This document shows positions 9,600-44,829 of a stretch of 64,000 nt of DNA, one piece after another. A program made the position numbers and the translations under genes. Origin of the DNA: an uncultured Akkermansia sp. (GTDB lineage: Bacteria > Verrucomicrobiota > Verrucomicrobiia > Verrucomicrobiales > V1-33); the NCBI GenBank assembly GCA_964523105.1, contig CAZFZN010000003.1, positions 251,707 to 315,706 on the forward strand. Reading direction: 5' to 3'. Positions within the stretch are counted from its first letter, which is position 1. Every line of letters begins with the position of its first letter. A model generated the notes under the pieces. It searched no databases, had not been told where the DNA came from, and was given only the letters and a program-made list of their open reading frames with translations.

Positions 9600-9758
9600 T
9601 TCTGTTCTGGATTGGGTGTTGAATGGTTCTTTTCTCTATTAGCCCCGTGTGTCCACGGCTTGCGGGGAGACTGCGACTGTCAGACCGCAGAGCGAGGCGA
9701 GGAGATGGCTGGCTCTCATGGGATTGGTGGCGTTTCCTATTCTGTCGCTGATCAAAAA

Positions 9759-10808: not shown

Positions 10809-10887
10809 GGTGTTGGTTGGAGACTTGGTGGGATGAGGCGGTCCGCCTTCGGACGGGCTAACGCTTCTCAGTTTTATTGGAGCTTGG

Positions 10888-12771: not shown

Positions 12772-12804
12772 GGAGCAGTAGTGAGGAGGTTTGCGCCCGT
12801 CCTG

Positions 12805-14958
12805 TCAGCTCTTCTTGAACTCCAGTCCCGGATCACCCTCGGGCGCGCCGATGAGGACAAACTTCATGTCCTTGTCGCCGGTTAGGGTGACTTCCGAAAT
12901 CATCTGGGAGTCTTTGCCGGTGAGGACGAGCAGGCCCTTGTCGTTGAGGCCGTAGGTTCCCTTCATTTCGGTCTTCTGGTCGCCGTTCATGTAGGACCAG
13001 GTGTAGTTGCCGTCGGCGGCCATGGAGAAAGTGACCTTGCCGTCCTGGCCGCGGTCGCTGACCCAGTTGCCGACGAGTTTGTCAGGGGCCACGGGGGCCG
13101 GGCGATCGACGGGCGCATCGTCCACCTCGCCGTCATCGGGCAGGGAACTTTTCGCGAGATCGCGCAACTGGTGGGCGGTGCCGTCGGCGGGCTGAAGTTT
13201 GGCGGTGATTTCAAACTCGGCATAGGCCTGGTCCATGTGGTCGGTGACGAGGTAGTGGTAGCCGAGCACGAAGTGTCCCTCGGCGGCGTCGGGCTTGCCT
13301 TTCACATAGTCCTCCAGCTTGCGGAGCTGATGGGTGTAGGTGGAGGAGGAATCGTAGAAACCGACCATGGTTTCCCAGCCCCAGCCGGGGCCGGAGGCGA
13401 GGACGGGATTGAGCACGCCGGCGGATTCGGCGTATTTGCCGAGCGCGAAGAGGACCAGCGCGCGGTATTCGTGGAGCGTCACATCCCCGGGCGTGTAGCT
13501 GATGGCTTCATCCACCGTGCTCATGGCGGTGACGTAGTCGCCTTTCTTGAACGCCGTCCGTGAACGATCGAGGGCTTCGGCGGATTTGGTTTCGGCGGTA
13601 GTCGCGGTAGCTTCGTCACCGGGCGGGGCCTTGGCGGCGCTAACAGACAGCGGCTGGGTATAGACCACCGTGGTGTTTTGCACCGGCGGCGCCGGATAGG
13701 GGTTCCGGTAGGTCTGGTAGCCCATGTCATAGATCATGTTGCCCATACTCCAGGCGGCGATGCCCCACATGAGACCTTTGGCGAAGTCGTCATCGTCATC
13801 GTCATACCACCAGCAGCGGTGATAGTGGTGATGATTGTAGCCATAGCCCCAGTGGCCGTGGTGCCATGAGTGGCAATGACCCGCGCCCCACCACGGACGC
13901 GCGCCCCAGTAGTTGGGACGGTAGGAGTAATTGAAGCTGTTCCGGAAGTTGTTGTTGATATTGATGTTCACATTGTTGCCAATGTTGACCCGGTTGCCCC
14001 AGATGCTGTTGTTGCCGCCCCATCTGCCGGTGTCCCAGTTGGGCACGCGCGCCGGAAGGGTGGACGGCCGGTTGAGCCCGATGTTCTCGCGCCCGATGTT
14101 GATGTTGTCGATATGGACGGGGTTCCGGTTTCCGATGTTGATGTTATCGCGCCCGGGGCCACCGATGCCAGGGCGAGTGTTGCCGGGCCGGTTCGGATAG
14201 GTGATCATTCCTGGCAGGGTGGAGGGCCGGCTGGTGCCGGGACGATTGGCCAGCGGGCCGTCGTTATTGCCGGGGCGGTCGAAACCCGGGCGGTTGTTGT
14301 CGCCGGGGCGGTTGAATCCGGGACGGTTGTTGTCGCCGGGACGCAGCCCGGGAAGATTGTTGCCGGGCCGGTTGTCTCCCGGGCGGAGGTTGCCGGGGAG
14401 TGTTTCCGGGCGGTTTTGGCCCGGGCGGAGATTCCCCGGGCGGTTGTCAGGAAGATTGTTGCCAGGGCGCTCGCCCGGTCTGGTTTCCGGCCGGTTGAGG
14501 CCGGGGCGGTCGCCGCCGCCCGGCCGGGTCGGGCCGGGGCGGGTTTCCGGACGGTTAGGGGCCGGCGCCGGCCGCGTCGTGGGCCGCTCTACGGAGGGAC
14601 GCCCGGACGGCCGGGTCTGCGGACGCTCCACGGGCCTTGCCTGCGGACGCTCCGCGGGCCGGGTTTGAGGACGGGCCGCGGGCCGGGTCTGAGGACGGGC
14701 TGCGGGCTGCGGCGCAGGACGGGAGACGGGGCGTTGAATCTTGGATCCTGTGGCGGGATTCCGGGGCGCGGAGACCCCGGGACGCGACACCCCGGGACGT
14801 GACATACTGGGACGCGACATGCTGGGACGCGACATGCCTCCGCCTCTGGAGGCGCCGGCGGAACCTTTTCCCCTGCCGACGCTGCCGCGGGCTTCGAGTT
14901 CCGGAACAGCAGCGCTCAAACTGAGGAGCGCGACGACATAGACACTGAATGGTTTCAT
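12805..14958 (-). CDS. secreted low-complexity (Pro/Arg/Gly/Asn-rich) protein with a His/Trp-rich acidic core and TPR-like C-terminal half
   Basis: ATG at 14958 with a signal peptide. About 320 aa of xRPxxRP and NRPG repeats follow, then GHCHSWHHGHWGYGYNHHHYHRCWWYDDDDDD. After that come TPR-like helices (GDYVTAMSTVDEAI..YRALVLFALGKYAESA..GHFVLGYHYLVTDHMDQAYAEFE) and a small beta-rich C-terminal domain. Confidence 0.7.
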   Translation of the reverse strand: MKPFSVYVVALLSLSAAVPELEARGSVGRGKGSAGASRGGGMSRPSMSRPSMSRPGVSRPGVSAPRNPATGSKIQRPVSRPAPQPAARPQTRPAARPQTRPAERPQARPVERPQTRPSGRPSVERPTTRPAPAPNRPETRPGPTRPGGGDRPGLNRPETRPGERPGNNLPDNRPGNLRPGQNRPETLPGNLRPGDNRPGNNLPGLRPGDNNRPGFNRPGDNNRPGFDRPGNNDGPLANRPGTSRPSTLPGMITYPNRPGNTRPGIGGPGRDNINIGNRNPVHIDNINIGRENIGLNRPSTLPARVPNWDTGRWGGNNSIWGNRVNIGNNVNININNNFRNSFNYSYRPNYWGARPWWGAGHCHSWHHGHWGYGYNHHHYHRCWWYDDDDDDFAKGLMWGIAAWSMGNMIYDMGYQTYRNPYPAPPVQNTTVVYTQPLSVSAAKAPPGDEATATTAETKSAEALDRSRTAFKKGDYVTAMSTVDEAISYTPGDVTLHEYRALVLFALGKYAESAGVLNPVLASGPGWGWETMVGFYDSSSTYTHQLRKLEDYVKGKPDAAEGHFVLGYHYLVTDHMDQAYAEFEITAKLQPADGTAHQLRDLAKSSLPDDGEVDDAPVDRPAPVAPDKLVGNWVSDRGQDGKVTFSMAADGNYTWSYMNGDQKTEMKGTYGLNDKGLLVLTGKDSQMISEVTLTGDKDMKFVLIGAPEGDPGLEFKKS
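14611..14706. repeat. 4 x 24-bp tandem repeat encoding (A/V)(A/E)RPQ(T/A)RP
   Basis: The units ccgggtctgcggacgctccacggg / ccttgcctgcggacgctccgcggg / ccgggtttgaggacgggccgcggg / ccgggtctgaggacgggctgcggg were read directly from the sequence. Confidence 0.85.
14771..14835. repeat. about 4.3 x 15-bp tandem repeat encoding (M/V)SRP(S/G)
   Basis: The units gagaccccgggacgc / gacaccccgggacgt / gacatactgggacgc / gacatgctgggacgc / gacat were read directly from the sequence. Confidence 0.85.
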
Positions 14959-24062: not shown

Positions 24063-27000
24063 TCACGGAGTCTGCGTCACGTAAAGGCGTAAGAAGGTCC
24101 GGCCCGGCGCCGTGGATGTCAGGCTGCGCCAGCGCCGCGTCATCGTGCCGTCGCCGTGGTCGGTGACGGAAACGAGTTCCACGCCCGCGGGAGACCACGA
24201 CTGCATGTCGCCGGAACTCTCGATGCGCGCGGTGAGGCCGCTGGCGCCGATCAGTTCGCGGACCGCCATGACCGTATAAAGCTCCGCGGCTCCGCCGGTG
24301 GTGAAGGATTCCAGTGTCACCGACGGCAGAAAAGCCGCGGACGGCAAGGTGCGCGCCCCGGTGGCAAAGGCCAGCATCTGGCTGATGCCGTCTTTGTCAG
24401 GGTCGGCGAGAGGATCGGGGTTGGCCTGCGCCGCGAGCCATGAGGCGAGCGTGGTGCGGTCGTCCGCGCCGGGCTGACCGCCGCCGGCCGCGCTGGGCCG
24501 CCAGTTTTCGGGCAGACTCATGCCGGCGTTGTCCGGCGGAGCGCTGGGATTGATGAGCGCCAGGGCTGGCCCGAAGCCGTCCGGCGATTTCGGCCATGCG
24601 CCCGCGTCATTGTAGGTGAAGCGCCACAGGTCTGCGCCCGCGGCATTCACCAGCGCGATGGATTCGCCGTCGTTGTTCAGATTGCCGGCCGCAAACTGGC
24701 CGAAGACCTTCACGCCGGCCCCGTAACGCGCCGCAAACGCCGCGGCATTGTTCACAACGACGCCGCGCTGGCCCGGCGCGAGTTCCGCCACGTCATCGGG
24801 AGCGAACGTGAAACTGATGCCGTCCACGATCTCCAGGCCCGCGAGGCTGATGGAGCGCGTGCCGTAGTTCATCAGTTCGATAAACTCGAACATCCGCGGG
24901 TCGGCAAATCCCGCGCTCACTTCCACCGGCGACGGGCCGGCAGGATTGTAGTGAATCTTCGAGATCACCAGATTCGCCGCTGTGGCCGGCTCCGCGGCGA
25001 CAATGAAGAAGGCCTCCGTGAGGGCCGACCACTCGCCGCCCGCCGAGCGCGTCCGGGCTTTCACGGTCCCGCTTTGCGTCAGGGTGATGCCGCTGTTGGA
25101 AATCTGCGCCTGCAGCGCGACATCGATTCCAAGATCGCTGCTGCCCGCGGTCTCCTGGTGCAGTTCGACGGCCAGCACGTTCACACCGTTCCGCAGCACG
25201 CCGGCGGGAGGCACGTATTCGATCCGCGTCACCGCATCCTCCGGACTCGCGCCGCCGCTGGCGAAACTCGCATAAGTTTGGTTGCCGCCGGCCATGTTGG
25301 TCCGTCCGGCCTCACGCCCGTTGATGTAGAGGATCGCACCGTCGTCGCGGATGACATCGATGAGCAGCTTGCTCACGCGCGTCGCATCGGCCACGGTGAA
25401 AGTCTTGCGGAAGTAGGTCGTGGGATATCGGTTCAGTGGGTCGCCGCCGAATCCGACCGTGGTCCGCATAGTGCGGTTCGTGATGCTGCCATAACCCAGC
25501 ATTGCCTGCCCGGTGCCCCACGCCGTGTCGTCGAAGTCCTCATGCTTCCAGTTGGTCAGGCTGTAAGCGGGATGCCCGGAGACGATTTCACTGTCGCCCA
25601 GTCCGGACGGTGTCGTGAAATACCGCCATCCCGGCGCTTCGAGGGCAAAATAGGATTCCGTCACACTGCCGCCGGCCAGACCGGTGGCCGCAGGATTCAC
25701 CGCGCCGCCGGGCAGCCGCGGATCGGATCCGTCCGTGGTGTAATAAACCGTGCCTGCGGGTGAGTTGGTGAAATTGATCAGCGGCGGATCGATCACCCCG
25801 CCGTGCTGGGTGAATTCGGGCGCATCGGTTGCCGGGTAGAGATTCGCGGCGCGGAACTGTGCGAGCGCGATGGCAGGGCGGTTCGGCATGTAGGAATTCA
25901 GAATGGTGTCGCGTGCCGCGATCCAGTGACTCTTGCGGAAATCGCGCACGCCCTGGCGGGTGTTCGGGTTGTCGCCCCAGCGCGCCGCCTCCGCGTCGAT
26001 CGCGGGCTCGATGTGTGCCGCCATGGCCGAATAGCGGGCGATCATCGTCGCGGAGGTGAGCGGACCGCCGTTGAAGCAGTGTTTGTGCACGCGATCGGCG
26101 AAGAGCAGGCGGAACTCCGCGTTCAGTTTGGCGCGGTCGTAAAACCGCGTCGGCGTCACGGTGGCACTGACCCCGAGCCGGTTGGCGTTGAGGTCGAGCA
26201 GCGTGTACTCCGAGTCCCACGGCACGAATTTGAACCCGCCGTCCGCGCCGTCGCGCCGTCCGAAGGCGTACCAGTTTTTGCCTGGCCAGTCGAGATTCGA
26301 GAGGAACGAATTGGCGATGACATAATCCGCCAGACACGTCATGTCCACATACTGGCGGAGATTGCCGTAGGCGACCGGGTTGGTCATGTCCTGGGCGCTG
26401 ATTGCGAGTGCCTGCTGCCAGCGGTCGGAGGTGCCGCTGACCATTTCGTAGCTGTTGGTCGGGGCGGAGGCGGGGCCTGTCAGGCTCTGATGCTTGAGCG
26501 CATCGTAATCCTCGTCGCGTCCGCCGTAATGACTGGAGGCATAATCGTCGTCAGGGCGCTCCGTGGGATTGTAAATGCCCCAGTAGAGACCGTTGAGGTA
26601 AAGATGCACGAATGTCCCGCGCGAGGCCGGCTGGCCCATGGCGAGATAGGTTTCGCGCATAAACGGATCGCGCAGGTATTGCGCCGGGTGTGCGTTGTCC
26701 ACCCACGCATCGCTGAAGGTGGCCCGCAGATTGATGCGGTCGAATTCCGAAATCTCCCCCTCGCCGAAGAGCGGGAAGTTCAGTTTCCCGGGGCCGTACT
26801 GCTTATTGAAAGTCAGGCGCAGCGACTTCTTCGGAGTGGCTTCGTAATGCCGGCTCCACCCGCCGATCAGCCGCACCGCGCATTCGATCTGAACCTCGCG
26901 CGCCCCGTCCGGCTGGATCCACTCCATGCTGCACTTCCGGTCCGGATTGAACGGCGATTGCGTGAAGACACCGATGCCATTCACGTCGCCAAACGGATTG

Positions 27001-28919
27001 GGCAGGATGCCGTCGTTGCCGAACAAGTCCGCCGGGTCCGCGACGATGGACATCGTCGGCAGGGAGCGGAGTGCCGCGATCATCGCGGGGCGGTTCGCGT
27101 TCACGATGACCGGCTTCATTTCGTAGTCTGCCGGCACCGGCACGCCGGCCGTGCTGCCGTTGGTGCCGGTGAAGACACCCCACGTCGCCGGAAAGCCCGG
27201 CGGATTCGCGGGCTGGTCGATGGATGTCGCCGGAAAAAGATAGGTCTGCGTGTCCACTCCGGTGCTGACCCAGCCGGGGCGGAACGCGATGGCACGCAGC
27301 ACGGTGGTCTTGTTGATCGCCACCGCCGCCGACGGCGTCTGGCCCGCGGCCGGCGTGACCACGGTCCCGTTCGCAGGCGTGGGCTCGGTGCCATTGGTCG
27401 TGTAGGAAATCGAGGCGTCCGGCGTCAGGCTCGTGATGTTCACCGTGATCGGCGCATCGAAGAAACCGCGGTCGATGTCGAATTTCGTGTCCTCCACGAA
27501 TCCGGCCAGGGCCGCGCCGTTGGGCGCTCCTGGCGTGGCCGGCACGAAAAATCCTGGCAGGCCGGTGCCCTCGTCAGTGCCCCAGGAAGCATCCGTCTGC
27601 TGCGGAGGAACGTTAGTGAATTCCGAGACCACCGTGGTGCCGTCCGGCGCCAGCAGCTGCAGCGTTTCGCCGCCGGCGGACAGCTGAAACGTGGTGTGCA
27701 GAAACCCGCCGGCGTCCGTGTAGTTCGCCGCTGCCTGACCCGACGCAAATACGACGAGCCGTGCGTTGCCCGCCAGTGGCACCGCCGGAAAGATCCAGGT
27801 CGTGGTGCTGTCCCGCAGTCCATAGCCGTCGAGCGCGATGCCGAACGCATTCGGATTCCAAATCTCGATCCAGTCGGAGGCATTGCCGTCGCCGTCGTTC
27901 AGCGCCGCGCTGTTCGACGCCATGAATTCCGTGAGGCGCGGCGGGAGCACGGTTTCGTTCACCCCCACCGTTACCTGAGCCGTCACGGAACCGGCGCCGT
28001 TCGCCGCCGTCAATGTGTAGGTTGTCGTGACTCCGGGGCTAACGTTTACGCTGCCGGTCGCACCGCTGATGGCCGGTGCGCCGTGGTTGATTGCGAGGCT
28101 GTCCGCGCGCGAAGTGTTCCATGAGAGCGCCGTGCTTTGCCCGGAAGTGATGTTTCCGGGCAGTGCGGTGAAGGAATTGATCTTCGGCAACTGCACCACG
28201 CCGCCGGCGTCGCGCAGGGCCTTCACTTCCACGGCCGTCAGCACGGTGTCGTAGAGAAAGACATTGTCGATCGCCCCGTCCCACGGCTCGGAATTGATGT
28301 CAGGCCGGATGGCGCCAATGGCGAAGGTATTCCAGCCCGCGCCAAACGCGCCCGCCGCCGTCACCGACACCAGCGGGTCCGCCACTGTGGCGGCGTCGAG
28401 ATCCACATACATTGTCACCTGCTTTGCCGGCTGATCATAACTCGCGGCAATGAACGACCACTGCGAAGTGCTCACCGGCCCTGGCGTGCCGGTGATCAGA
28501 CCGTTGGCGTTCACAGCATCATTTCCGATGAAGGTGGCGTAGCGGAAGGTTCCGCCCGGGTTGCGGTTGTCCAGTCCCAGCGTGCGGTCCCAGCTGCCGT
28601 TGTCGTGGCCGAGCACCTTATAGAGATTGCTCGTCAGAGTGTCTGTCCGCACCCACGCGCCCCATGTCATGCGCGGCAGCGCAGTCGGATTGATGTCCAC
28701 CGGGACGATGAGCCGGTCCCCGGAGAAATCGTAGGCGCCGCTGCCGTTGAAGCCGGTCGTCGCTCCCCACACCGGATTGGTGCCGGCATTCCCGCTGATG
28801 TTGTTGCCATGGCCGCTGGCGTCCAGATAGGGATTGGCAGCATTGTCGAAGTCGAAGTAGGCGATCAGTTCAGCCCGGGCGGCGACGAGCAGGAGGTGGA
28901 GAAGCAGTATGATGCGCAT
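24063..28919 (-). CDS. giant secreted CotH-kinase-family protein with N-terminal LamG module, lamin-tail (LTD) domains and chitobiase/FN3-associated-like domains
   Basis: I moved the start to ATG 28919 (MRIILLLHLLLVAARA, a signal peptide). The LamG module at about 28200-28870 is paralogous to those in 20620..24003. The CotH-like core reads KKSLRLTFNKQYGPGKLNFPLF..INLRATFSD..YLRDPFMRE..VHLYLNGLYWGIYNPTERPDD. An LTD-like segment reads LVISKIHYNP..FEFIELMN. YTTNGTEPT and YYTTDGSDP segments are present. Confidence 0.8.
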   Translation of the reverse strand: MRIILLLHLLLVAARAELIAYFDFDNAANPYLDASGHGNNISGNAGTNPVWGATTGFNGSGAYDFSGDRLIVPVDINPTALPRMTWGAWVRTDTLTSNLYKVLGHDNGSWDRTLGLDNRNPGGTFRYATFIGNDAVNANGLITGTPGPVSTSQWSFIAASYDQPAKQVTMYVDLDAATVADPLVSVTAAGAFGAGWNTFAIGAIRPDINSEPWDGAIDNVFLYDTVLTAVEVKALRDAGGVVQLPKINSFTALPGNITSGQSTALSWNTSRADSLAINHGAPAISGATGSVNVSPGVTTTYTLTAANGAGSVTAQVTVGVNETVLPPRLTEFMASNSAALNDGDGNASDWIEIWNPNAFGIALDGYGLRDSTTTWIFPAVPLAGNARLVVFASGQAAANYTDAGGFLHTTFQLSAGGETLQLLAPDGTTVVSEFTNVPPQQTDASWGTDEGTGLPGFFVPATPGAPNGAALAGFVEDTKFDIDRGFFDAPITVNITSLTPDASISYTTNGTEPTPANGTVVTPAAGQTPSAAVAINKTTVLRAIAFRPGWVSTGVDTQTYLFPATSIDQPANPPGFPATWGVFTGTNGSTAGVPVPADYEMKPVIVNANRPAMIAALRSLPTMSIVADPADLFGNDGILPNPFGDVNGIGVFTQSPFNPDRKCSMEWIQPDGAREVQIECAVRLIGGWSRHYEATPKKSLRLTFNKQYGPGKLNFPLFGEGEISEFDRINLRATFSDAWVDNAHPAQYLRDPFMRETYLAMGQPASRGTFVHLYLNGLYWGIYNPTERPDDDYASSHYGGRDEDYDALKHQSLTGPASAPTNSYEMVSGTSDRWQQALAISAQDMTNPVAYGNLRQYVDMTCLADYVIANSFLSNLDWPGKNWYAFGRRDGADGGFKFVPWDSEYTLLDLNANRLGVSATVTPTRFYDRAKLNAEFRLLFADRVHKHCFNGGPLTSATMIARYSAMAAHIEPAIDAEAARWGDNPNTRQGVRDFRKSHWIAARDTILNSYMPNRPAIALAQFRAANLYPATDAPEFTQHGGVIDPPLINFTNSPAGTVYYTTDGSDPRLPGGAVNPAATGLAGGSVTESYFALEAPGWRYFTTPSGLGDSEIVSGHPAYSLTNWKHEDFDDTAWGTGQAMLGYGSITNRTMRTTVGFGGDPLNRYPTTYFRKTFTVADATRVSKLLIDVIRDDGAILYINGREAGRTNMAGGNQTYASFASGGASPEDAVTRIEYVPPAGVLRNGVNVLAVELHQETAGSSDLGIDVALQAQISNSGITLTQSGTVKARTRSAGGEWSALTEAFFIVAAEPATAANLVISKIHYNPAGPSPVEVSAGFADPRMFEFIELMNYGTRSISLAGLEIVDGISFTFAPDDVAELAPGQRGVVVNNAAAFAARYGAGVKVFGQFAAGNLNNDGESIALVNAAGADLWRFTYNDAGAWPKSPDGFGPALALINPSAPPDNAGMSLPENWRPSAAGGGQPGADDRTTLASWLAAQANPDPLADPDKDGISQMLAFATGARTLPSAAFLPSVTLESFTTGGAAELYTVMAVRELIGASGLTARIESSGDMQSWSPAGVELVSVTDHGDGTMTRRWRSLTSTAPGRTFLRLYVTQTP

Positions 28920-28925
28920 AGGGGA

Positions 28926-28957
28926 TTTTGGCAGAATAATGGGGGCAGAATGATGAT
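28926..28957 (-). repeat. start-proximal leader element, copy 1 (reads ATCATCATTCTGCCCCCATTATTCTGCCAAAA on the minus strand, then TCCCCT-ATG of 24063..28919)
   Basis: Read directly from the sequence. It forms an imperfect inverted repeat with copy 2 about a centre near 28967. Confidence 0.8.
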
Positions 28958-28977
28958 TTGAGAAGACTTCTTCGCTT

Positions 28978-29003
28978 ATCATTTTGCCCCCATTATTTTG
29001 CCC
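28978..29003 (+). repeat. start-proximal leader element, copy 2 (ATCATTTTGCCCCCATTATTTTGCCC, then ATCCCCTGCC-ATG of 29014..29802)
   Basis: Read directly from the sequence. Confidence 0.8.
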
Positions 29004-29013
29004 ATCCCCTGCC

Positions 29014-29802
29014 ATGCCAATCATCCTGCACACCCCCGTTCGCGTGCTCAATCAGCAGGAGTTCCACGAACTGAACCATCAGGTGCTCGGCGTCATCTTC
29101 CAGGTCCACAGCGAGTATGGCAGGCTCGCCGACGAAGCCGTCGTCAAGTCCGCCATCGCCGCTGAATGGAACCGCACGGGAATCGCCGCCCGCGATATTC
29201 CCATCCGCCTGACCCACGGCAGTTACTCCAAAACCCTCTACATGGACCTGCTCTTCGAGTCCTCGCTGATGATCGAAGCCAAAACCGCCGACCGGCTCAG
29301 CGGCTCGCACCGCGCGCAGGCACTCAACTATCTTTTCCTCACCGGAATGCACCACGGCACGCTGGTCAACCTGCGCACCCCGCGCGTGGAGCATGAGTTC
29401 GTCTCCACGCACATCAGCCCGGAGGCACGCCGCGTCATCCAGGTCCGCAAATTCCACCGGCCTGAGGACGCGGACTCCGCGCGCCTCCTCACCTGTGCGG
29501 AATCCCTGCTCCGCGACTGGGGCTCGTATCTGGAAGTCTCCCTCTACCGTGACGCCATCGCTCATCTGCTGCAACTCGGCGAATCCTCGCCCGTATCTGT
29601 TTTTCATGATGGCCAGCGCATCGGGCATCAGCCCATGCTGCTGCTCAACGAAACCACCGTCCTCGCCTGCACCGCGCTCACCAGCGGCCACGAAGACCTG
29701 TCGAGCCATCTCCAGCGACTCCTCTCCCACACCCAACTCACCTCGCTGCGCTGGCTGAACTTCAACCACACCACCCTGGAACTTCGCGCCCTCCCCGCCT
29801 AA
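29014..29802 (+). CDS. GxxExxY-like PD-(D/E)XK nuclease-fold protein with ~130-aa C-terminal extension
   Basis: ATG at 29014 (the ORF-track start at 28984 is a TTG inside the repeat). YMDLLFESSLMIEAKTADRLSGSHRAQALNYLFLTGMHHGTLVNL matches the D..(V)E.K...aQ.lnYLk.tg...GlLiNF core of GxxExxY proteins as recalled. The name-giving motif is degenerate (LADEAVV). Confidence 0.65.
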   Translation: MPIILHTPVRVLNQQEFHELNHQVLGVIFQVHSEYGRLADEAVVKSAIAAEWNRTGIAARDIPIRLTHGSYSKTLYMDLLFESSLMIEAKTADRLSGSHRAQALNYLFLTGMHHGTLVNLRTPRVEHEFVSTHISPEARRVIQVRKFHRPEDADSARLLTCAESLLRDWGSYLEVSLYRDAIAHLLQLGESSPVSVFHDGQRIGHQPMLLLNETTVLACTALTSGHEDLSSHLQRLLSHTQLTSLRWLNFNHTTLELRALPA

Positions 29803-29803: not shown

Positions 29804-29833
29804 TATCATTCTGCCCCCATCATTTTGCCAAAG
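29804..29833 (+). repeat. start-proximal leader element, copy 3 (TATCATTCTGCCCCCATCATTTTGCCAAAG), overlapping the 5' end of the CRTAC1-like gene
   Basis: Read directly from the sequence. It begins 2 nt after the TAA of 29014..29802. The downstream ACCATCATCCTGCAC mirrors ATGCCAATCATCCTGCAC of copy 2. Confidence 0.8.
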
Positions 29834-31543
29834 ACCCCCACCATCATCCTGCACCTTTCCGCGCTGTCCCTCACCGCGCAGTCCTCCCTCCTGTCCCCCG
29901 ATCTAAAACCCATCCTCGACCGACTCGATCCCTCGACCGACGCCGGCTGGGAATCGGAGGAGTCCAGTGATGCCGCGCAGAATGTGTTGAAGAAACTCAT
30001 CGCAGCTGTCGCCGATTCGTCTGCGGGAAAGATCAAAGCACCGGAATTCCGCACCCATCGCTGGCGGCCGGCGGCACGGGAGAAGGTCTTCGCTGACAAG
30101 AGCGTGGAAGTCTGGCGCGCGAAGCCTGACAAAAACGAAGTTCCGCCCGCGGAGGCGATGACATCCCTGCGCGAACCTTACGATGCGAAGGCCAGGCTGG
30201 AGGTGAAGCTCAAAACTTTCCGCGTCACACCGCCGTCGGAGAAGGACGGTTCATTTGCCACCGAAGTGCTGGTGCTCGCGGGAGGCGCAGGCAGGCAAGG
30301 CACCGTGCAGCAGAACGCGCACTGGCGCTGCGAGTGGACCGGCGGCGCAGAGCCGGTCCTGCGTTCCATCGAGGTGTTGTCGTACGAGGAAATCCTGCCG
30401 GTGGCCGCAGGGCTGCATTATGAAGACGTGACGCCCTCCGCCTTCCGCGGTGTGGAGTCGTTCCGCACGCAGTTGTTGCGCGGCATCGATCACTGGCGTC
30501 CGCGTTTGCAGGGCGACTACGGCAATGACGTCAACGGCCTCGAAGGTCTCGCGCTCGGCGATGCCGACGGCGACGGACTCGACGACCTTTACGTCTGCCA
30601 GCAGGGCGGGCTGCCCAACAAACTCTATCTGCGCAATGCCGACGGCACACTGCTCGACTTCTCGTCAGAGTCCGGTGCCGACTGGATGGAGGTGACCCGG
30701 GCCGCGCTCTTCGTAGACCTCGACAACGACGGCGATCAGGACCTCGCGCTCGCGCAGGGCTGGTATTACATGCTCATGGAGAATGATGGCAAAGCGCATT
30801 TCACAAAGAGGGCGGAAGTCCGCGCGGAGGCGAATCTGCACTCGCTCGCCGCCGCTGATGCCGATCTCGACGGTGATCTCGATCTTTATCTCTGCGGACG
30901 CAATCCGGCGCGCGAGATGGCGCAGAGCGAGGGCATTCTCGGCCAGCCTGTCCCCTATCACGACGCCAACAACGGCGGGCCGAACATTTATCTGCGCAAC
31001 GACGGTAATTGGAAATTCACCGACAACACCGTGGCCAGCGGCCTCGATGCGAACAACCGCCGCTACAGCTACGCCTGCTCTTGGGAGGATTACGATCTCG
31101 ACGGCGATCCTGATCTCTACGTCGCCAACGACTTCGGCCGCAACAATCTCTACCGGAACGACGGTGGCAAATTCACGGACGTGGCCGCCGCGCTGGGCGT
31201 GGAGGACATCTCCGCCGGCATGGGCGTGACGTGGGGCGATCCCAACAACGACGGTCGCCCTGACATCTACGTGAGCAACATGTTCTCCAGCGCCGGCAAT
31301 CGCATTGCCTACCAGCGCCACTGGCGCGCCGGCGCGGCCAATGCCGAATTCCAGCGCCATGCCCGCGGCAACAGTTTGTTTCTGAACGCCGGCAACGTAT
31401 TCAACGACGCGAGCGTTTCCGCCGGCGTCACCATGGGCCGCTGGGCGTGGGGCGCGCACTTCGCCGACCTCAACAACGACGGCTGGGAGGATCTTTACGT
31501 GGCCAACGGCTTCATCACCACGGAGGACACCGGCGACTTGTGA
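29825..31543 (+). CDS. CRTAC1/ASPIC-type FG-GAP (VCBS) repeat protein, N-terminal part, ending at an in-frame TGA
   Basis: Repeated Ca-binding-like motifs are present: GDADGDGLDDLYV, VDLDNDGDQDL, DADLDGDLDLYL, DYDLDGDPDLYVAND, DPNNDGRPDIYVSN and DLNNDGWEDLYVANG. There is no ATG at the 5' end, and TTG 29825 is the first start-like codon. The TGA at 31541-31543 is in frame with 31565..33505. Confidence 0.75.
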   Translation: MPKTPTIILHLSALSLTAQSSLLSPDLKPILDRLDPSTDAGWESEESSDAAQNVLKKLIAAVADSSAGKIKAPEFRTHRWRPAAREKVFADKSVEVWRAKPDKNEVPPAEAMTSLREPYDAKARLEVKLKTFRVTPPSEKDGSFATEVLVLAGGAGRQGTVQQNAHWRCEWTGGAEPVLRSIEVLSYEEILPVAAGLHYEDVTPSAFRGVESFRTQLLRGIDHWRPRLQGDYGNDVNGLEGLALGDADGDGLDDLYVCQQGGLPNKLYLRNADGTLLDFSSESGADWMEVTRAALFVDLDNDGDQDLALAQGWYYMLMENDGKAHFTKRAEVRAEANLHSLAAADADLDGDLDLYLCGRNPAREMAQSEGILGQPVPYHDANNGGPNIYLRNDGNWKFTDNTVASGLDANNRRYSYACSWEDYDLDGDPDLYVANDFGRNNLYRNDGGKFTDVAAALGVEDISAGMGVTWGDPNNDGRPDIYVSNMFSSAGNRIAYQRHWRAGAANAEFQRHARGNSLFLNAGNVFNDASVSAGVTMGRWAWGAHFADLNNDGWEDLYVANGFITTEDTGDL

Positions 31544-31574
31544 AGTTTCTACTGGCGGCAGGTCGTGTCGCAGT
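31541..31574 (+). promoter_or_regulatory. candidate recoding site: in-frame TGA plus downstream bulged hairpin with GGU-containing loop (possible bacterial SECIS; unproven)
   Basis: TGA is at 31541-31543. The hairpin spans 31551-31574 with pairs A51-U74, C52-G73, U53-A72, G54-C71, (G55 bulged), C56-G70, G57-C69, G58.U68 and C59-G67. The loop is AGGUCGU. With U of UGA numbered +1, the GGU falls at +21 to +23. Confidence 0.3.
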
Positions 31575-33505
31575 CACCGCAAACCACCGAGACCACGCCG
31601 GACAAAGCCGAGCGCTACCGGCTCGGCTGGAAGGCTCTCAGCGAACTCATCGGTCAGGGCCGTGCCTTCAGCGGGCACGAAAAGGACACCTGCTTCCTCA
31701 ACACCCGGGACGGGCGCTTTGCCGACGTGTCGGTCGCCAGTGGACTCGATTTCGATGACGACGGGCGTGCCCTGGCCACCTGCGACTGGGACTTCGACGG
31801 ACGCACCGACTTCTGGGCCAGCTATCGCACGTCGCCGCGCGTGCGCCTGCTGCGCAACGCGACCGCGGCGCCAGGAAACTGGCTCGCGCTGCAACTCAGA
31901 GGTACGACCTGCAATCGCGACGCCATCGGCGCGCGTGTCGTCATCACACTTCCCGGCGGGCAAACCCGCACGCGCTGCCTGCGCGCCGGCGAGGGATTCC
32001 TCGCGCAGTCGAGCAAGTGGCTGCATTTCGGCCTCGGGATCGCAGAGAACGTGAAAAGCGTCACCGTCCACTGGCCGGGCGGCAAAGCTGAGAACATCAG
32101 CGGAGTCGTCGCCGGAAAACATCAGCGTATCGTCCAGGGCAGCGGCAAAGCGGAAATCATCACGCCGCCGGCGAAGGCCGCGCTGAAGGCTGCTGCCTAT
32201 CCAAAGCCTCCGGACGACAGCCTGATGCGCACCTGGATCATCGGCCGTCTGCCGTTGCCGGAAAGCTCGCTCATTCCCGCGACGGGCAAACCGCTGCTCG
32301 TCAATTTCTGGTCGCAGACCTGCGCGCCGTGTGTTGCCGAAATGGCAGAGTGGACCAAACGCGAAAAGGAAATCCGCGCGGCCGGACTCGATATTGTCGC
32401 ACTCAACATGGATGGCCTGACGCCCGGCGGACAACCCGCACCGCCGCCCAAGGGGTTTCCCTTCCGCACTGCCAATGCCGACACCGCGACAGTGGAGGCC
32501 ATGGAACTGCTCCATCGCGTCACGGTCGAACTGCAAGCCCCGCTCCCCGCGCCCACGAGTTTCCTTTTGGACAAGGAAGGCCGCGTCGCTGCCATTTATA
32601 AAGGCGCCGTGCCGCTGGAACTTCTTCTGACTGATCTCGCGCTGCTGGAAAAGCCGGTCGAATCCCAGCGCGATGCCGCCGTGCCCTTCAAAGGCCGCTG
32701 GGCCTCGCAGCCCTTTCCGCCACAGCCGCTGCGCTACGCCGAGGCCTTCGCCAACATCGGCCAGCCCGCGCGGCGGCTCGCGTACCTTGCACATTATAAT
32801 AGCAGAGCATCCGAAGCGGCGGTGCAGATGCGTCTCGGCGAACTGTATCTGGAAGCGGGCCGGGCGCAGGAAGCGGTCAGCACCTGGGCCGCGTTGCCGT
32901 CGGATCGCCCCGATCTGCACCGCACCGCCGGCATCGCCCTGCTGCAGCGCAACCTCGGCGAACCCGCACGCCGCCATTTGCGCACGGCATTGCCGGCTTT
33001 TGAGAAGGATCCCGCCTTCCGCTTCAACTGCGGCATCGCCGAAGCCTCCACCGGACACCTGCCGGCAGCCCTCGGGCATTTTCAGGCGGTGACACAGCTC
33101 GACCCCCGGGACGCCGCCGCCTTTTTCCAGACCGGCAACCTTCTCCAGGCCGCCAAACGCAGCAAGGAAGCCATCGCTGCCTACCAGGAAAGTCTGCGGC
33201 TCAAACCCGGCTGGGCTTTTCCCGCGAACAACCTCGCCTGGCTGCTCGCCACCGATCCCGATCCCGCCGTGCGCAACGGTCAGGAAGCCCTGCGTCTCGC
33301 ACAGGCCGTCGTTAAGGCGGACGGCGGCAAAAACCCGGCCACGCTCTCCACGCTCGCCGCCGCGTATGCTGAGACCGGCGACTTCGCCCAAGCCGTCAGT
33401 GCCATGGAAGCCGCCATCCGCCACACGCCCGACCCGGCACAGGCGCAGCGGCTGCAGCCTTCACTCCAGGCCCTGAAAGCCGGGCAGCCGGTACGGACTC
33501 GCTGA
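31565..33505 (+). CDS. CRTAC1/ASPIC-type protein, C-terminal part: UnbV/ASPIC-like segment + TlpA/thioredoxin-like domain + TPR repeats
   Basis: It is in the same frame as 29825..31543, and the sequence between them (SFYWRQV) is open. NWLALQLRGTTCNRDAIGARV..GEGFLAQSSKWLHFGLG..VTVHWPGG is ASPIC/UnbV-like. LLVNFWSQTCAPCVAEM carries a CxxC thioredoxin-fold motif. The C-terminal part has TPR-like repeats (AIAAYQESLRLKPGWAFPANNLAWLLAT). Confidence 0.75.
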   Translation: MSQSPQTTETTPDKAERYRLGWKALSELIGQGRAFSGHEKDTCFLNTRDGRFADVSVASGLDFDDDGRALATCDWDFDGRTDFWASYRTSPRVRLLRNATAAPGNWLALQLRGTTCNRDAIGARVVITLPGGQTRTRCLRAGEGFLAQSSKWLHFGLGIAENVKSVTVHWPGGKAENISGVVAGKHQRIVQGSGKAEIITPPAKAALKAAAYPKPPDDSLMRTWIIGRLPLPESSLIPATGKPLLVNFWSQTCAPCVAEMAEWTKREKEIRAAGLDIVALNMDGLTPGGQPAPPPKGFPFRTANADTATVEAMELLHRVTVELQAPLPAPTSFLLDKEGRVAAIYKGAVPLELLLTDLALLEKPVESQRDAAVPFKGRWASQPFPPQPLRYAEAFANIGQPARRLAYLAHYNSRASEAAVQMRLGELYLEAGRAQEAVSTWAALPSDRPDLHRTAGIALLQRNLGEPARRHLRTALPAFEKDPAFRFNCGIAEASTGHLPAALGHFQAVTQLDPRDAAAFFQTGNLLQAAKRSKEAIAAYQESLRLKPGWAFPANNLAWLLATDPDPAVRNGQEALRLAQAVVKADGGKNPATLSTLAAAYAETGDFAQAVSAMEAAIRHTPDPAQAQRLQPSLQALKAGQPVRTR

Positions 33506-33547: not shown

Positions 33548-34069
33548 TCAGGTGAACAGGATGTGCGTGCCCGTTCCGGCGGATTCCTGGTAGAAATCAC
33601 CCACTGTCAGCACGCCGTCCACGCGTTCCCACAGGTCCTCTCTTTTCAGTTTGAACATATCCATCGCGAGTTTGCAGGCGTAGATTTTTCCGCCGGAGTC
33701 GGAAATGAGTTCGAGGAATTCCCGCACGGGCGGGATGTCGAGCTTTTCCATTTCGCGGTTCATGAGATGACTGGCGAAAGCCGACACTCCGGGAATGGCG
33801 CCGAGCCACGTGGGGAAGGGGAGGGTCATGGGCATGCCGAGCATGGGCATGGCCATGTTCAGCGCGGAATTGCCGACCGTGGCCACTTTGAGCCTGTCCA
33901 GCGTCTTGTTTGTCAGGGCATTGAGGCCGAAGAAGGTGAAGAACAGGGAGGCCTCGATGCCCTCCATGCGTGCTCCGTTCGCCATGATCAGCGCCGGATA
34001 CACGCCGTCGAGCGAGCCCCGGCTCACGATGATGGAGACCTTCTTCACGGGTTGTTTGTCGTCGTTCAT
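33548..34069 (-). CDS. DsrE/DsrF-like (COG2210-type) sulfur-relay family protein
   Basis: ATG at 34069. KKVSIIVSRGSLDGVYPALIMANGARMEG and the conserved Cys context GGKIYACKLAMDMF are present. Confidence 0.75.
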   Translation of the reverse strand: MNDDKQPVKKVSIIVSRGSLDGVYPALIMANGARMEGIEASLFFTFFGLNALTNKTLDRLKVATVGNSALNMAMPMLGMPMTLPFPTWLGAIPGVSAFASHLMNREMEKLDIPPVREFLELISDSGGKIYACKLAMDMFKLKREDLWERVDGVLTVGDFYQESAGTGTHILFT

Positions 34070-34093
34070 AATAATTGTCAGGACGGAGTGGAA

Positions 34094-34405
34094 TCAGATG
34101 CAGCCCACCGGCTTCGGGATGCCGGCGATTTTGGAGGACTTCTTGAGCGGGCCGCCGGGGAAGAGGTCGTAGAGTTCCTTCGTGGTCACGACCCCGCTTT
34201 TGCCCATGCTGCGAATGGTAAGGGCCGCGCCTTTGGACTGCTGCTCGCGCAGATAGCGGATGACTCTCATGTGGGCTTCGGTGAGCGGCGCGATGCCCTC
34301 CGCGGCGGCGATTCCCGCAGCGATGGATTCGTTCCACTGCGACATGTCGGTGAGGTAGCCCTCTTCGTTCACGTCCAGTTCTGTTCCGGCGATGGTCGTT
34401 TTCAT
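34094..34405 (-). CDS. TusE/DsrC/DsvC-family sulfur-transfer protein
   Basis: 103 aa. LDVNEEGYL...WNE and LT..H..VI.YLR are present, and the C-terminal IPKPVGCI has the penultimate-region Cys typical of the family. Confidence 0.8.
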   Translation of the reverse strand: MKTTIAGTELDVNEEGYLTDMSQWNESIAAGIAAAEGIAPLTEAHMRVIRYLREQQSKGAALTIRSMGKSGVVTTKELYDLFPGGPLKKSSKIAGIPKPVGCI

Positions 34406-34445
34406 ACGGGTGGTTGGTTGGGGGTTGGGATGCGACAGGGAGGCG

Positions 34446-35672
34446 TCAGGCCGCGGGTTTCTTTTTCCGCCGGCTGATGCCGGGAAGCGGCCGCGCTTTC
34501 AGCAGCACGTTCCAGTAAACATGGCGGAAGGCCAGTTTGCCCCAGTGATTGAGACGGCTTTCCTCCAGCAGTTTCATGGGGCCGAAGGCGAAGGGAAACC
34601 GGCCTTCGTGCGGTTCGTACTCGTAATTGAAATCAATGAGCAGTGCCTTGCCGTTGCCGGATTCGATGAAGCAGTTCGAGTGGCCGTCGAATTCCTCCTT
34701 GAGCGGTTCGCCCCGGATGTGCCGCATCACATTGTCCGCCAGCGTTTCGCTTTCAAAGTGGGCCACCGATCCGGCTTTCGACGCAGGCAGATTGGTGGCG
34801 TCGCCGATCACAAAGACATCGGGGAATTGAAGCGACTGCAGCGTATGCTTGTGCGTGGGAATGAAGTCGAGATCGTCGCCGAGGCCGCTGCGCCGCACGG
34901 CTTCATCGCCCATGTTGGTCGGCGTGGTCACGAGCAGATCGTAGGGCACTTCGCGGCCGTCGAAGCAGACGAGTTTGTCGTTCTCCTGATCCACCTTTTC
35001 CGCCACGAAGTCGGTCACCAGTTCGATGCCTTTATCGGTGAGCAGGTGGCTGAGCTTCCTGGAGGCCTTCGGTTTGGTGAAGGCGCCGGAAAGCGGCGTG
35101 ACATAAGTGAGGGTCACCTTGTCGCGGAGGCCGCGCTCGCGGAAGAAAGTGTCGGCGAGAAACGTGAACTCCAGCGGCGCCACCGGGCATTTGACCGGCA
35201 TTTCGTTGATGTGAACCACGACGCGGCCCCCTGGAAAGTTCGCCAGCCTGTCCCGCAGCGCCCTTGCGCCGTCGAGTGTGTAAAAGTCATGCACGTTCAC
35301 GCGCCACTTGGGCCCCGTCATTCCCTCCGTCTCCTCCGGCGCGGTGCGACAGCCCGTGGCGATGATCAGGACGTCGTATTGGAGTTCCCGGCCGTCCTTG
35401 AGAGTGACGGCGTGTTCCGCCGGAGCCATTCGTTCCACTTCCGCGTGCAGAAATTCCACGCCCCGCGGGAGAAAGTCCCGCGTCTCGCGCACGATCTGGC
35501 TTTCCTTGTAGATTCCGAACGGCAGGAACAGAAACCCCGGCTGATAGAGATGTTTCTCCGACCGGTCCACCACCGTCAGGCGCCATTCCCCGGCGGGAAG
35601 GCGGCGGCGCAGGTGGTTGGCCATCATGGTGCCGGCCGTGCCGGCGCCGAGGATCAGAAGATGTTTGCTCAT
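34446..35672 (-). CDS. sqr: sulfide:quinone oxidoreductase-like FAD-dependent oxidoreductase
   Basis: I moved the start to ATG 35672 (MSKHLLILGAGTAGT, a Rossmann GxGxxG). The longer ORF-track N-terminus is Arg/Pro-rich with no homology pattern. KCPVAPLEF and VFVIGDATNLPASKAGSVAHFE are SQR-like. Confidence 0.8.
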   Translation of the reverse strand: MSKHLLILGAGTAGTMMANHLRRRLPAGEWRLTVVDRSEKHLYQPGFLFLPFGIYKESQIVRETRDFLPRGVEFLHAEVERMAPAEHAVTLKDGRELQYDVLIIATGCRTAPEETEGMTGPKWRVNVHDFYTLDGARALRDRLANFPGGRVVVHINEMPVKCPVAPLEFTFLADTFFRERGLRDKVTLTYVTPLSGAFTKPKASRKLSHLLTDKGIELVTDFVAEKVDQENDKLVCFDGREVPYDLLVTTPTNMGDEAVRRSGLGDDLDFIPTHKHTLQSLQFPDVFVIGDATNLPASKAGSVAHFESETLADNVMRHIRGEPLKEEFDGHSNCFIESGNGKALLIDFNYEYEPHEGRFPFAFGPMKLLEESRLNHWGKLAFRHVYWNVLLKARPLPGISRRKKKPAA

Positions 35673-35702
35673 GGCGGTGGTTCCAGGGTTCCGGGGATTT
35701 CT

Positions 35703-35722
35703 ATATGAGCACATACGCATAT
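35703..35722. promoter_or_regulatory. AT-rich inverted repeat ATATG-N10-CATAT 31-50 nt upstream of the SQR start (possible operator/promoter)
   Basis: The sequence tatatgagcacatacgcatatgcaatgaggaattttt is an isolated AT-rich island in GC-rich DNA. Its function was not tested. Confidence 0.25.
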
Positions 35723-36340
35723 GCAATGAGGAATTTTTCACTGCGGAGGCAAATTCGAGCGGAGTCCGGCTGCGGAAGGCCATGGCCGGCCCGCGCCGCC
35801 GGAGGCTGACGCGGGTACAGAAGGAGGCGCGTCGCGTGATGCCGCTGCGCCACCGGCCACGGCATGGCTCCCGCAAGTGCTGCCGGGAGATGCCGCCGCA
35901 GACGCCGCCCCGGCCAGTGGCGCACTTCACGGCAACCCCTCCGGCATCGCGGCCGACTCGCCTGTCCTCCACTGCAGTTCCAAACCTGGCTGGCATAATC
36001 ATCCGACCGGCGATCGTTCCCCGGATTGCATGATCCAATGGATGTCAGTGCACGCAAGTTCCCCGGTAACGTAAAAACCCTGGTAACATGAAAACTGTTC
36101 CTCCACGGACGAAGAGGCGCGGAGCCGTCCCCGGCTCTCCAATGCCGCAGCCCGGCTCCGCTCCCCCGGCATTCGCCGCCGCCTCATGAGTGGGACGCGC
36201 ACAGCGCATCCCTACCGCTTAATTTTTGGCGCTGCGCGCTCTTGGATCGGGCATCGTGCTGGAAGATTGGAATTTCAGAATCGCGGTGATACGATCCGGC
36301 CCGGATTATCGCATAAAGAGCCAGCAGCAAACCGCCGCCC

Positions 36341-43755: not shown

Positions 43756-44016
43756 ATGAATGCTGCACCTCCGACGCCGGGGAAACTGCCCGCCCTTCTC
43801 TGCCTGTTCATCGCCCTGCTGGCCCGCCCGCTGGCGGCGGCGGAGGACAGCGTGGTGCGCGGCGCGGACGAGTTGTTCTGGGTCCCGACGCTGGAGCAGG
43901 CGCTGGAAGTGAGCCAAGCCACCGGCCGGCCGATCTTCCTCATGGGCTATTCGCTGGTGCCTGACGGAAGCACCTACACCGGGCTCCAGGAGGACTACTG
44001 CCGCGGAGTTTACTGA
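43756..44016 (+). CDS. secreted DUF255/thioredoxin-like protein, N-terminal part, ending at an in-frame TGA
   Basis: The signal peptide is LPALLCLFIALLARPLAAAE. WVPTLEQALEVSQATGRPIFLMGYS resembles the ..A...A..e.KPIFLSIGYS N-terminus of DUF255 thioredoxin-like domains. The TGA at 44014-44016 is in frame with 44044..44829. Confidence 0.7.
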   Translation: MNAAPPTPGKLPALLCLFIALLARPLAAAEDSVVRGADELFWVPTLEQALEVSQATGRPIFLMGYSLVPDGSTYTGLQEDYCRGVY

Positions 44017-44042
44017 CCCGGCTTCCGGTTCGAGGAGAGCCG
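44014..44042 (+). promoter_or_regulatory. candidate recoding site: in-frame TGA plus downstream bulged hairpin with GGU-containing loop (possible bacterial SECIS; unproven)
   Basis: TGA is at 44014-44016. The hairpin spans 44019-44042 with pairs C19-G42, G20-C41, G21-C40, C22-G39, U23-A38, U24.G37, (A36 bulged), C25-G35 and C26-G34. The loop is GGUUCGA. The GGU falls at +14 to +16, which is closer to the UGA than in E. coli fdhF. Confidence 0.3.
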
Positions 44043-44043
44043 T

Positions 44044-44829
44044 GTGCTTTCCAAACCAGAGGTTCACACGAGACTCGCGAAGCATTTTGTCGGCGTGCGG
44101 TTCGACTGGGAGCAGGGGAATCATTATAAGCCGAAGCTGGGATTCATCCCCGGCACGGGCGATCAGGTGCTGCTGACGCCCGGCGGTGAACTCATCCGCT
44201 CCCCCGGGCCTGACAAACCCGGAAAGAACTCCGCGATTCACGGGCGCCACGGCCGCGATACCACCGGTGCCGTGCTCGACGAGGTCATCAAGGTGCATCC
44301 GGTGAAGCGTCAGGAATTGAAGCTCGACTGGTTCCTGTGGCCGATGAAGCCGGCCCGGCGCCCTGGCGGACATTACCCCGTGCCCTATGCCGCCATCGCC
44401 GGATATGCCAGGCTGCCGTACGTCGTCGTGGATGGCCCCCTGCCGCCGGCGCTGGAGGACGCGAAGTTTCTCCACTGGCACGTGCGCCAGTTCATCTGGG
44501 TGCGGGGAAATCCGGATGCGCCCGCCCGGCTCACGGTGCGCCGGGTCAAGGATGGCCTGAAAGACGGTATGCCTGCCGAACTCGCCACGCTCGACCCCGC
44601 CGCCCTGACACAAAAGGAACTGGGGACGGCGCTCGACAAGGCGTGGCTCACCTACATGAAGGACCGGCCGCTCACCGCCCGCGGGTATCTGGAGAATGTT
44701 CACGGCAAATGGATGCGCGGTCAGGCATCTCAAATGATTCACGAGGACGACGAAACCCGCGCCCGCGCCGTCGCGGGCACCCTCATGGCACCCGGCAGAA
44801 AACCGGGCGAAGCGCCGCCTTACGAATAG
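44044..44829 (+). CDS. DUF255/thioredoxin-like protein, C-terminal part (same frame as 43756..44016)
   Basis: The ORF-track start is a GTG. The 27 nt between the TGA and this GTG are open in the same frame (PGFRFEESR). SKPEVHTRLAKHFVGVRFDWEQ aligns with the ..d.eVa..lN..FV.IKVDREE segment that follows the CxxC in DUF255 proteins. Confidence 0.7.
   Translation: MLSKPEVHTRLAKHFVGVRFDWEQGNHYKPKLGFIPGTGDQVLLTPGGELIRSPGPDKPGKNSAIHGRHGRDTTGAVLDEVIKVHPVKRQELKLDWFLWPMKPARRPGGHYPVPYAAIAGYARLPYVVVDGPLPPALEDAKFLHWHVRQFIWVRGNPDAPARLTVRRVKDGLKDGMPAELATLDPAALTQKELGTALDKAWLTYMKDRPLTARGYLENVHGKWMRGQASQMIHEDDETRARAVAGTLMAPGRKPGEAPPYE

Follow-up and report, generated by a model that had tools for sequence, protein, structure and literature searches.

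Gene Structure and Domain Architecture

The stretch of DNA analysed here, 64 kb of contig CAZFZN010000003.1 from an uncultured Akkermansia sp. (the window; G+C content 63.6%, position 1 being its first letter), carries on its forward strand a CRTAC1/ASPIC-like gene at 29825..33505, which is interrupted by an in-frame TGA at 31541..31543 and which we interpret as a probable selenoprotein gene. ORFs 29825..31543 and 31565..33505 share one frame, in which this TGA is the sole stop between position 29825 and the terminal TGA at 33503-33505, with the junction reading ...ANGFITTEDTGDL-TGA-SFYWRQVVSQSP...; the original prediction, made from the sequence of the window, had both the frame and the coordinates right. 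The gene comprises 572 codons, the UGA, 653 further codons and the terminal TGA, and would encode 1,226 residues, with the UGA, read as selenocysteine (Sec), at residue 573. The TTG at 29825 is the start annotated by NCBI for the N-terminal half, to which the database protein P0001 is identical, and the start is uncertain. By eye, the N terminus looks like a signal peptide, and the protein is predicted to be exported.

The N-terminal half contains four FG-GAP_3 repeats (Pfam PF13517, E 8e-35), and Pfam assigns to the C-terminal half one further FG-GAP_3 repeat, an UnbV_ASPIC domain, a Redoxin/AhpC-TSA domain and TPR repeats. FG-GAP/VCBS β-propeller repeats span 30542..31813 (limits approximate; assigned by Pfam and by an AlphaFold2 model and Foldseek search of homologue P0088) and are followed, all on the + strand, by the UnbV/ASPIC domain at 31922..32119 (Pfam PF07593, E 5.4e-17), a TlpA/ResA-like thioredoxin-fold domain at 32282..32614 (Pfam Redoxin and AhpC-TSA; NCBIfam ResA and TlpA; Foldseek ResA and TlpA) and C-terminal TPR repeats at 32822..33457 (Pfam TPR_2, TPR_19, TPR_16 and others). 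This is the order of domains that had been predicted. The propeller followed by an UnbV_ASPIC domain places the protein in the CRTAC1/ASPIC-UnbV family, and the TlpA/ResA-like assignment is made by both sequence and fold, i.e. a thioredoxin fold with a CxxC motif, here a CAPC active site at 32321-32332 within the motif FWSQTCAPC. In NCBIfam (release 20) only ResA/TlpA-like and TPR similarities were found, and no family-specific model.

Conservation of the In-Frame UGA

With the fused sequence as query, a first protein search recovered 7,952 relatives (E <= 1e-10). The best 120 of these are 62-100% identical to the query and almost all cover only 62% of it; those inspected among them that stop short all end ...NGFITTEDTGDL. 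At the DNA level, we sampled 79 loci from GTDB contigs (one genome per species) which, with the window and including extra paralogues, give 84 genes from Verrucomicrobiales, Akkermansiaceae, Roseibacillus, Limisphaerales, Pirellulaceae, Planctomycetaceae, Phycisphaerae, Acidobacteriota, Krumholzibacteriia and a few others. All 84 have TGA at exactly the junction codon, and none has TAA, TAG or a sense codon there, although the terminal stops of the same genes are mixed (TGA 27, TAG 22, TAA 21). Past the TGA, 541-816 codons follow without a stop wherever a locus is not truncated by the end of its contig or by masking, the two apparent exceptions being masked stretches of N. A conserved UGA with an open downstream frame, as is expected of a bacterial selenoprotein gene, is therefore present throughout. 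Full-length identity to the window protein within the clade of Sec forms has a minimum of 37% and a median of 41%, and since the TGA is kept down to 37% identity it has survived deep divergence. Several genomes have two to four copies of the gene, some in tandem, with the TGA kept in every copy.

With respect to copy number, two copies per locus occur in L022, L032, L036, L051 and L064; among multi-copy metagenome-assembled genomes (MAGs), JBLHHN01 has four (L003, L011, L046 and L061), and DATKCT01 is represented by L006, L045 and L048.

Reassignment of the genetic code was ruled out, because TGA is the commonest of the genuine stops in the window, ending 30 of its 40 ORFs. Three other same-frame ORF pairs split by a single TGA, at 12805-12807 (-), 34094-34096 (-) and 52768-52770 (+), were considered and rejected as recoding cases: these abutting ORFs with high G+C at third codon positions are ordinary neighbouring genes, each with its own start and signal peptide, an example at these splits being a DsrC/TusE-like protein that ends ...GCI at the stop.

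An RNA Element Following the UGA

With the U of the UGA counted as +1, a mini-helix resembling a selenocysteine insertion sequence (SECIS) is predicted at 31555..31571 (+ strand; 17 nt, +15 to +31), 11 nt after the UGA. It has six pairs (G15-C31, C16-G30, G17-C29, G18.U28, C19-G27 and A20-U26) that close the pentaloop GGUCG at 31561-31565, which has the consensus N-G-U-N-N across homologues, G22 and U23 being invariant. The hairpin anticipated at this place is thus real, as is the position of GGU at +21 to +23, but not its proposed size, i.e. an 8-bp stem with the 7-nt loop AGGUCGU: six pairs are conserved, the supposed seven-membered loop is closed by A20-U26, a pair that covaries with G-C, and the lowest pairs proposed, 11-34 and 12-33, do not form in roughly half of 80 homologues and were discarded as not conserved.

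From -3 to +32 the DNA is conserved far beyond what the protein requires, giving a zone of synonymous constraint at 31538..31572 (+) that reads UUG UGA AGY ... UGG CGR CAG GUC GUG UCG CAA. Against a background of codon usage elsewhere in these 84 ORFs, Leu-1 is TTG in 76/84 genes (background 0.19), Ser+1 is AGY in 80/84 (0.33), Arg+5 is CGR in 78/84 (0.37), Val+7 is GTC in 77/84 (0.39), Val+8 is GTG in 73/73 (0.34), Ser+9 is TCG in 72/75 (0.36) and Gln+10 is CAA in 54/63 (0.44), whereas usage in the following two codons is again mixed. Pairing was counted on 80 distinct sequences. At 20-26 there are 69 A-U and 11 G-C pairs and none unpaired, and the change from A-U to G-C requires two residues to be replaced (Q by R and V by T); at 18-28 there are 37 G.U, 34 A-U, six C-G and two G-C pairs, with one sequence unpaired. 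None of 500 shuffles matched the covariation score, and slid controls fell far below it. Conservation of the UGA is absolute, and selection acts on the RNA element.

Of the 84 TGA genes, 78 retain the complete set of six pairs, compared with three of 11 sense-codon relatives whose DNA was inspected (Fisher p = 3.4e-6); of the remaining eight relatives, three retain five pairs and the other five at most four. The comparison points clearly to reinforcement of the hairpin where the TGA is present. The features looked for in the stem-loop of a bacterial selenoprotein gene, namely a proper distance from the UGA, invariant G22/U23, compensatory pairs and synonymous constraint, are all found. The three relatives with six pairs have Cys (P0124), Asp (P0087) and Glu (P0138) at the site, and the hairpin may be older than Sec, or may be a fossil that persists after Sec loss.

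Selenocysteine Machinery in Relatives

E. coli SelA, SelB and SelD were used as tblastn queries against 1.04 Mb of sequence, made up of the window and every locus, and gave matches only in L017 (Verrucomicrobiales bacterium CPC23) and L020 (Verrucomicrobiota ETNP1_MAG_3). In both, a family gene, the tRNA-Sec gene (selC), selD, selA and selB follow one another on one strand, the sel clusters occupying 4977-8834 of L017 and 4895-8771 of L020. In L017, the family gene (903-2837, then the TGA, then 2838-4811) precedes a tRNA-Sec gene at 4977-5066 (Rfam RF01852, 61.7 bits against a gathering threshold of 47, E 1.4e-10, anticodon UCA), selD at 5083-6111 (product 53% identical to that of E. coli), selA at 6093-7445 and selB from 7442 onward. 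Both loci come from marine verrucomicrobial MAGs, and their selD is of the Cys form (GAGCGCK). The Sec machinery is linked to the CRTAC1-like family in relatives, in that the gene adjoins a complete Sec cluster in two species.

ARAGORN reported no tRNA-Sec in any locus; these negatives are uninformative because it also missed the tRNA-Sec genes of L017 and L020 that were found with RF01852. In the window itself there is no tRNA, and no Rfam match to tRNA-Sec at gathering or lenient thresholds.

The Residue at the Probable Sec Position and a Possible Single Origin of Sec

Among 1.84 billion representative proteins, a profile search found 127 sense-codon relatives covering the site. The aligned residue is Glu in 39, Asp in 23, Ser in 22, Ala in 16, Asn in seven, Gln and Met in four each, Cys in three and Gly in two, with single occurrences of others. 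The occurrence of Cys in homologues, another feature by which bacterial selenoproteins are recognised, is observed, though weak in number (3/127: P0124, P0154 and P0180). P0124 has TGC, one base from TGA, together with an intact, fossil hairpin (GGCGCCAGGUCGUGGCGC), a Cys at +48 and a WCEPC thioredoxin motif. P0154 and P0180 are encoded on one contig, both with TGC and both with a broken hairpin; on that contig (L127, JGI contig Ga0366744_1002595), three CRTAC1-like genes, including these two, lie in a row at 2541-13837.

A rough neighbour-joining tree was built from 600 residues around the site, excluding the site itself, with midpoint rooting and without bootstrap. All 79 usable Sec forms fall in one clade of 87 tips, with 105 non-Sec sequences outside. 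The eight non-Sec sequences nested in it have Cys (P0124), Trp (P0088), Ser (P0156, P0123 and P0126), Ala (P0178) and Glu (P0138 and P0165). The tree suggests that Sec arose once, at a position formerly occupied by Asp, Glu or Ser, and was later lost in a few lineages. P0180 and P0154 lie outside the clade, which suggests independent use of Cys at the site. The original prediction had proposed that homologues be checked for Cys at this position; Cys forms do exist, but most homologues have Glu, Asp, Ser or Ala.

Structural and Functional Clues

Within the Sec clade the flank of the site is strongly conserved (TxDTGDL-U-S[FV][YF]WRQVVSQSP), whereas in non-Sec relatives the equivalent residues ahead of the site vary. 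The thioredoxin CxxC motif is intact in 76 of 77 Sec-clade genes compared with 12 of 127 non-Sec homologues. A Cys 50 residues after the Sec in the window protein (..GHEKDTCFLN.., 31691..31693, + strand) is a candidate resolving residue; a Cys at +45 to +53 is present in 73/84 Sec-clade genes and in all three Cys forms, and in 25/124 other non-Sec homologues. The near-universal retention of the thioredoxin CxxC in the Sec clade suggests that the fusion forms a redox relay.

The AlphaFold2 model of homologue P0088 (mean predicted local distance difference test score, pLDDT, 80; predicted template modelling score 0.83) matches the crystal structure of murine CRTAC1 (9etn; Foldseek E 1.6e-26, template modelling score 0.70, target-normalised), and its C-terminal domain matches ResA and TlpA. 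The site equivalent to Sec lies between propeller blades at the start of a helical insert, where the pLDDT of the model is below 50.

A Second UGA-Containing Gene and the Neighbourhood

A second TGA in the window, at 44014-44016 (+), joins ORFs 43756..44016 and 44017..44829. The protein encoded at 43756-44829 matches no Pfam or NCBIfam family significantly, with only a weak Thioredoxin_7 similarity just past the site, and the family is absent both from NCBIfam and from a 2026 inventory of selenoproteins (PMC13188914). The codon is TGA in 44/44 metagenomic homologues (...DYC(S/T)GVF-TGA-PGFKFEESRVLS...), with a Cys five residues upstream. A second hairpin, at 44034-44052 (+21 to +39), has a 7-bp helix with the loop CG(G/U)GU and shows compensatory changes at 26-34 (GC 34, AU 4) and at 27-33 (CG 36, UA 2). 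This TGA had been put forward as a companion case of Sec recoding, and universal TGA with a covarying helix is indeed a like pattern; we regard 43756-44829 as a second candidate selenoprotein gene. Two independent families with a conserved UGA and hairpin within 64 kb argue strongly for Sec decoding in the organism.

Upstream of the CRTAC1-like gene, a protein of 1,662 residues with CotH kinase, lamin-tail, LamG and chitobiase-C domains is encoded at 24063-29051 (-); a CotH/LamG protein is likewise its neighbour in 8-9 related loci, so that the synteny is no more than local. Just downstream, 33548-36044 (-) encodes DsrE2-like and DsrC/TusE-like proteins (the latter ending ...PVGCI) and a pyridine-nucleotide-disulfide oxidoreductase; this looks like a sulfur-relay set, and it is not conserved beside the selenoprotein gene in other loci. 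Among the neighbourhoods of the loci, no functionally informative neighbour is conserved across phyla. A plasmid similarity search gave no match.

Discussion

Our results favour, with a probability of about 0.9, the reading that 29825-33505 is a single gene for an exported selenoprotein of ~1,226 residues, in which the UGA at 31541-31543 would be decoded as Sec. Sec recoding, which had been raised as a possibility from the sequence of the window, is now supported by the TGA in 84/84 genes, a long open frame beyond it, a covarying hairpin with fdhF geometry, relatives linked to sel genes and the second TGA at 44014.

Several observations weigh against this reading. Glu, Asp, Ser and Ala predominate at the site in non-TGA homologues, which is atypical of a Sec site. 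Within the 64-kb window there is no selA, selB, selC or selD, and no Rfam match to a SECIS at gathering or lenient thresholds. The isolated 66-nt fold is unexceptional (z = +1.35, with 190 of 200 shuffles at least as stable). The peptide W-R-Q-V-V-S dictates most of the stem and leaves free only positions 18, 27 and 30 and, in the loop, 21 and 24, and a perfect six-pair hairpin with a GGU loop also occurs in L130 (P0087, GAT for Asp) and L136 (P0138, GAG for Glu); because of this constraint and because some non-Sec relatives keep the hairpin, the presence of the hairpin alone is not diagnostic. The structural model is of low confidence around the site (pLDDT <50 for residues 358-385 of P0088), and the evidence for the redox relay is one of co-occurrence. 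In the literature searched, no experimental incorporation of selenium is reported for any family member. The original prediction held that non-Cys residues in homologues, together with a lack of sel genes, or a TGA missing from close relatives, would speak against recoding; the residues at the site are indeed mostly not Cys, but Cys forms exist, relatives have sel genes and the TGA is universal in the 84 genes.

One rival, programmed read-through of the UGA without Sec, is in our view very unlikely. It would have the hairpin slow termination while a near-cognate tRNA (for Trp, Cys or Arg) inserts an ordinary residue, and it would accommodate the many residues tolerated at the site in sense-codon homologues, including Trp in P0088, a sister to a TGA form. 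However, an ordinary residue could be encoded directly, leaving no reason for TGA in 84/84 genes, and in spacer, size and GU loop the hairpin exactly matches the mini-SECIS bound by SelB. Read-through is likewise at odds with the position of the gene next to selC-selD-selA-selB in two genomes and with the co-occurrence of the TGA and an intact CxxC redox domain.

Genuine termination, with a propeller polypeptide and a separate ASPIC-thioredoxin-TPR polypeptide and with the hairpin serving translational coupling or regulation, we consider very unlikely. Every gene caller and NCBI annotate two genes, with both NCBI and JGI listing the halves separately, as a "VCBS/FG-GAP repeat protein" and a second protein, and most members have a GTG at +25 to +27; yet ACG, TCG or GCG replaces this GTG in 11/84 genes, the junction is always in frame and gapless, and the stop is always TGA despite the mixture of stops at the ends of the same genes. 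Moreover, the C-terminal half would be without a signal peptide despite its periplasmic-type TlpA/ResA domain, the TGA splits the β-propeller ahead of its last blade, and more than 120 homologues are single polypeptides, in agreement with the earlier view that a two-gene arrangement is unlikely. A pseudogene with a nonsense mutation, or an error of sequencing or assembly in the contig, was previously thought equally possible, and one single-base event could make the TGA. This reading is excluded for practical purposes because 84 independent genes share the TGA, with the downstream frame open and no decay; they come from different phyla and from separate studies and assemblies, and several are paralogues within one genome.

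If the UGA at 31541-31543 is decoded as Sec, the standard bacterial route would apply, in which Sec-tRNA(Sec) is delivered by SelB, here presumably recruited by the 17-nt intragenic stem-loop that lies 11 nt past the UGA and presents G22/U23. The Sec residue, in a conserved loop of the CRTAC1-like propeller, would act as a redox-active selenol, possibly forming a selenenylsulfide with the frequent Cys ~49 residues downstream (Cys+50 in the window protein), and the TlpA/ResA-like CxxC domain fused within the same protein might recycle it. ResA/TlpA domains are extracytoplasmic, and the CxxC domain could be fed in the periplasm by a CcdA/DsbD-type reductant.

A further, tentative proposal, which we consider less likely than not, is that the family is Sec-obligate and of single origin. 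The coding sequence for WRQVVS would have provided a pre-folded SECIS-like hairpin at the right distance, Cys forms would be secondary, and Sec would confer a selenol-based function on CRTAC1/ASPIC proteins. The family may then maintain Sec decoding in the Planctomycetes-Verrucomicrobia-Chlamydiae (PVC) phyla, as FdhA does in Proteobacteria, because it is multi-copy, widespread in soil and marine settings and linked to selC-selD-selA-selB. Such an obligate use of Sec would, if true, mean a new selenol-based catalytic function for the enigmatic CRTAC1/ASPIC propellers.

Recoding by this mechanism is well established; the novelty lies in a large, mis-annotated and essentially undescribed selenoprotein family in Verrucomicrobia, Planctomycetes and others. 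Full-text literature searches found no CRTAC1/ASPIC/FG-GAP selenoprotein in the main text of any paper, and the family is absent from the 119 prokaryotic families and subfamilies of the 2026 inventory in Appl Environ Microbiol (PMC13188914, Table 1). Kim et al. 2016 (PLoS One 11:e0151883, PMC4807772, Table S9) list four ASPIC/FG-GAP selenoprotein candidates in planctomycetes, each annotated as two genes, three of the four positive with bSECISearch, and with Gly aligned to the UGA in the closest sense-codon homologue; the planctomycetes P1 and P2 of that study have selA, selB and selD. These candidates belong to the same domain family and are likewise split by UGA, presumably at the same position. 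That report comprises four genes, whereas the present analysis adds conservation, covariation, distribution, linkage to the machinery and the correlation with CxxC.

Recognising the family corrects thousands of gene models and shows the selenium dependence of many Verrucomicrobia and Planctomycetes. It also gives a first functional handle on the bacterial relatives of vertebrate CRTAC1, namely a putative redox-active Sec coupled to a fused thioredoxin domain, and a clear example of a Sec site at which most non-Sec homologues lack Cys.

Comparison with known systems puts these findings in context. With respect to RNA, the minimal E. coli SECIS is reportedly the 17-nt upper stem-loop located 11 nt from the UGA. 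We compared the window gene directly with fdhF of E. coli K-12 (UGA140 with a mini-SECIS bound by SelB), and the proposal of an fdhF-like hairpin holds in that both have an 11-nt spacer and a 17-nt span from +15 to +31. They also have in common an in-frame UGA, a stem-loop within the ORF, a GCAGGUC core and a G-U of the essential type in the apical loop. The fdhF helix has a bulged U17 and the loop A-GGUC-U with G23/U24, whereas that of the window gene is an uninterrupted helix of 6 bp with a 5-nt loop and no bulged U17, and because it lacks the bulge its G-U falls at +22/+23 rather than +23/+24. The proteins are unrelated, that of the window being a predicted exported β-propeller protein with no molybdopterin.

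With respect to the protein, FG-GAP_3 repeats and the UnbV_ASPIC domain are common to the window protein and the CRTAC1/ASPIC-UnbV family, the known members of which are not selenoproteins, the place of Sec being taken in ordinary members by Glu, Asp, Ser or Ala; to this family the window clade adds the probable Sec, the fused TlpA/ResA-like CxxC domain and the TPR repeats. Known Sec-containing thioredoxin-fold families share the fold, a motif of the W-C-x-P-C type and a presumed periplasmic redox role with the window protein, but they have Sec inside the active site, whereas in the window protein the motif is all-Cys and the proposed Sec lies ~270 residues upstream, in the propeller.

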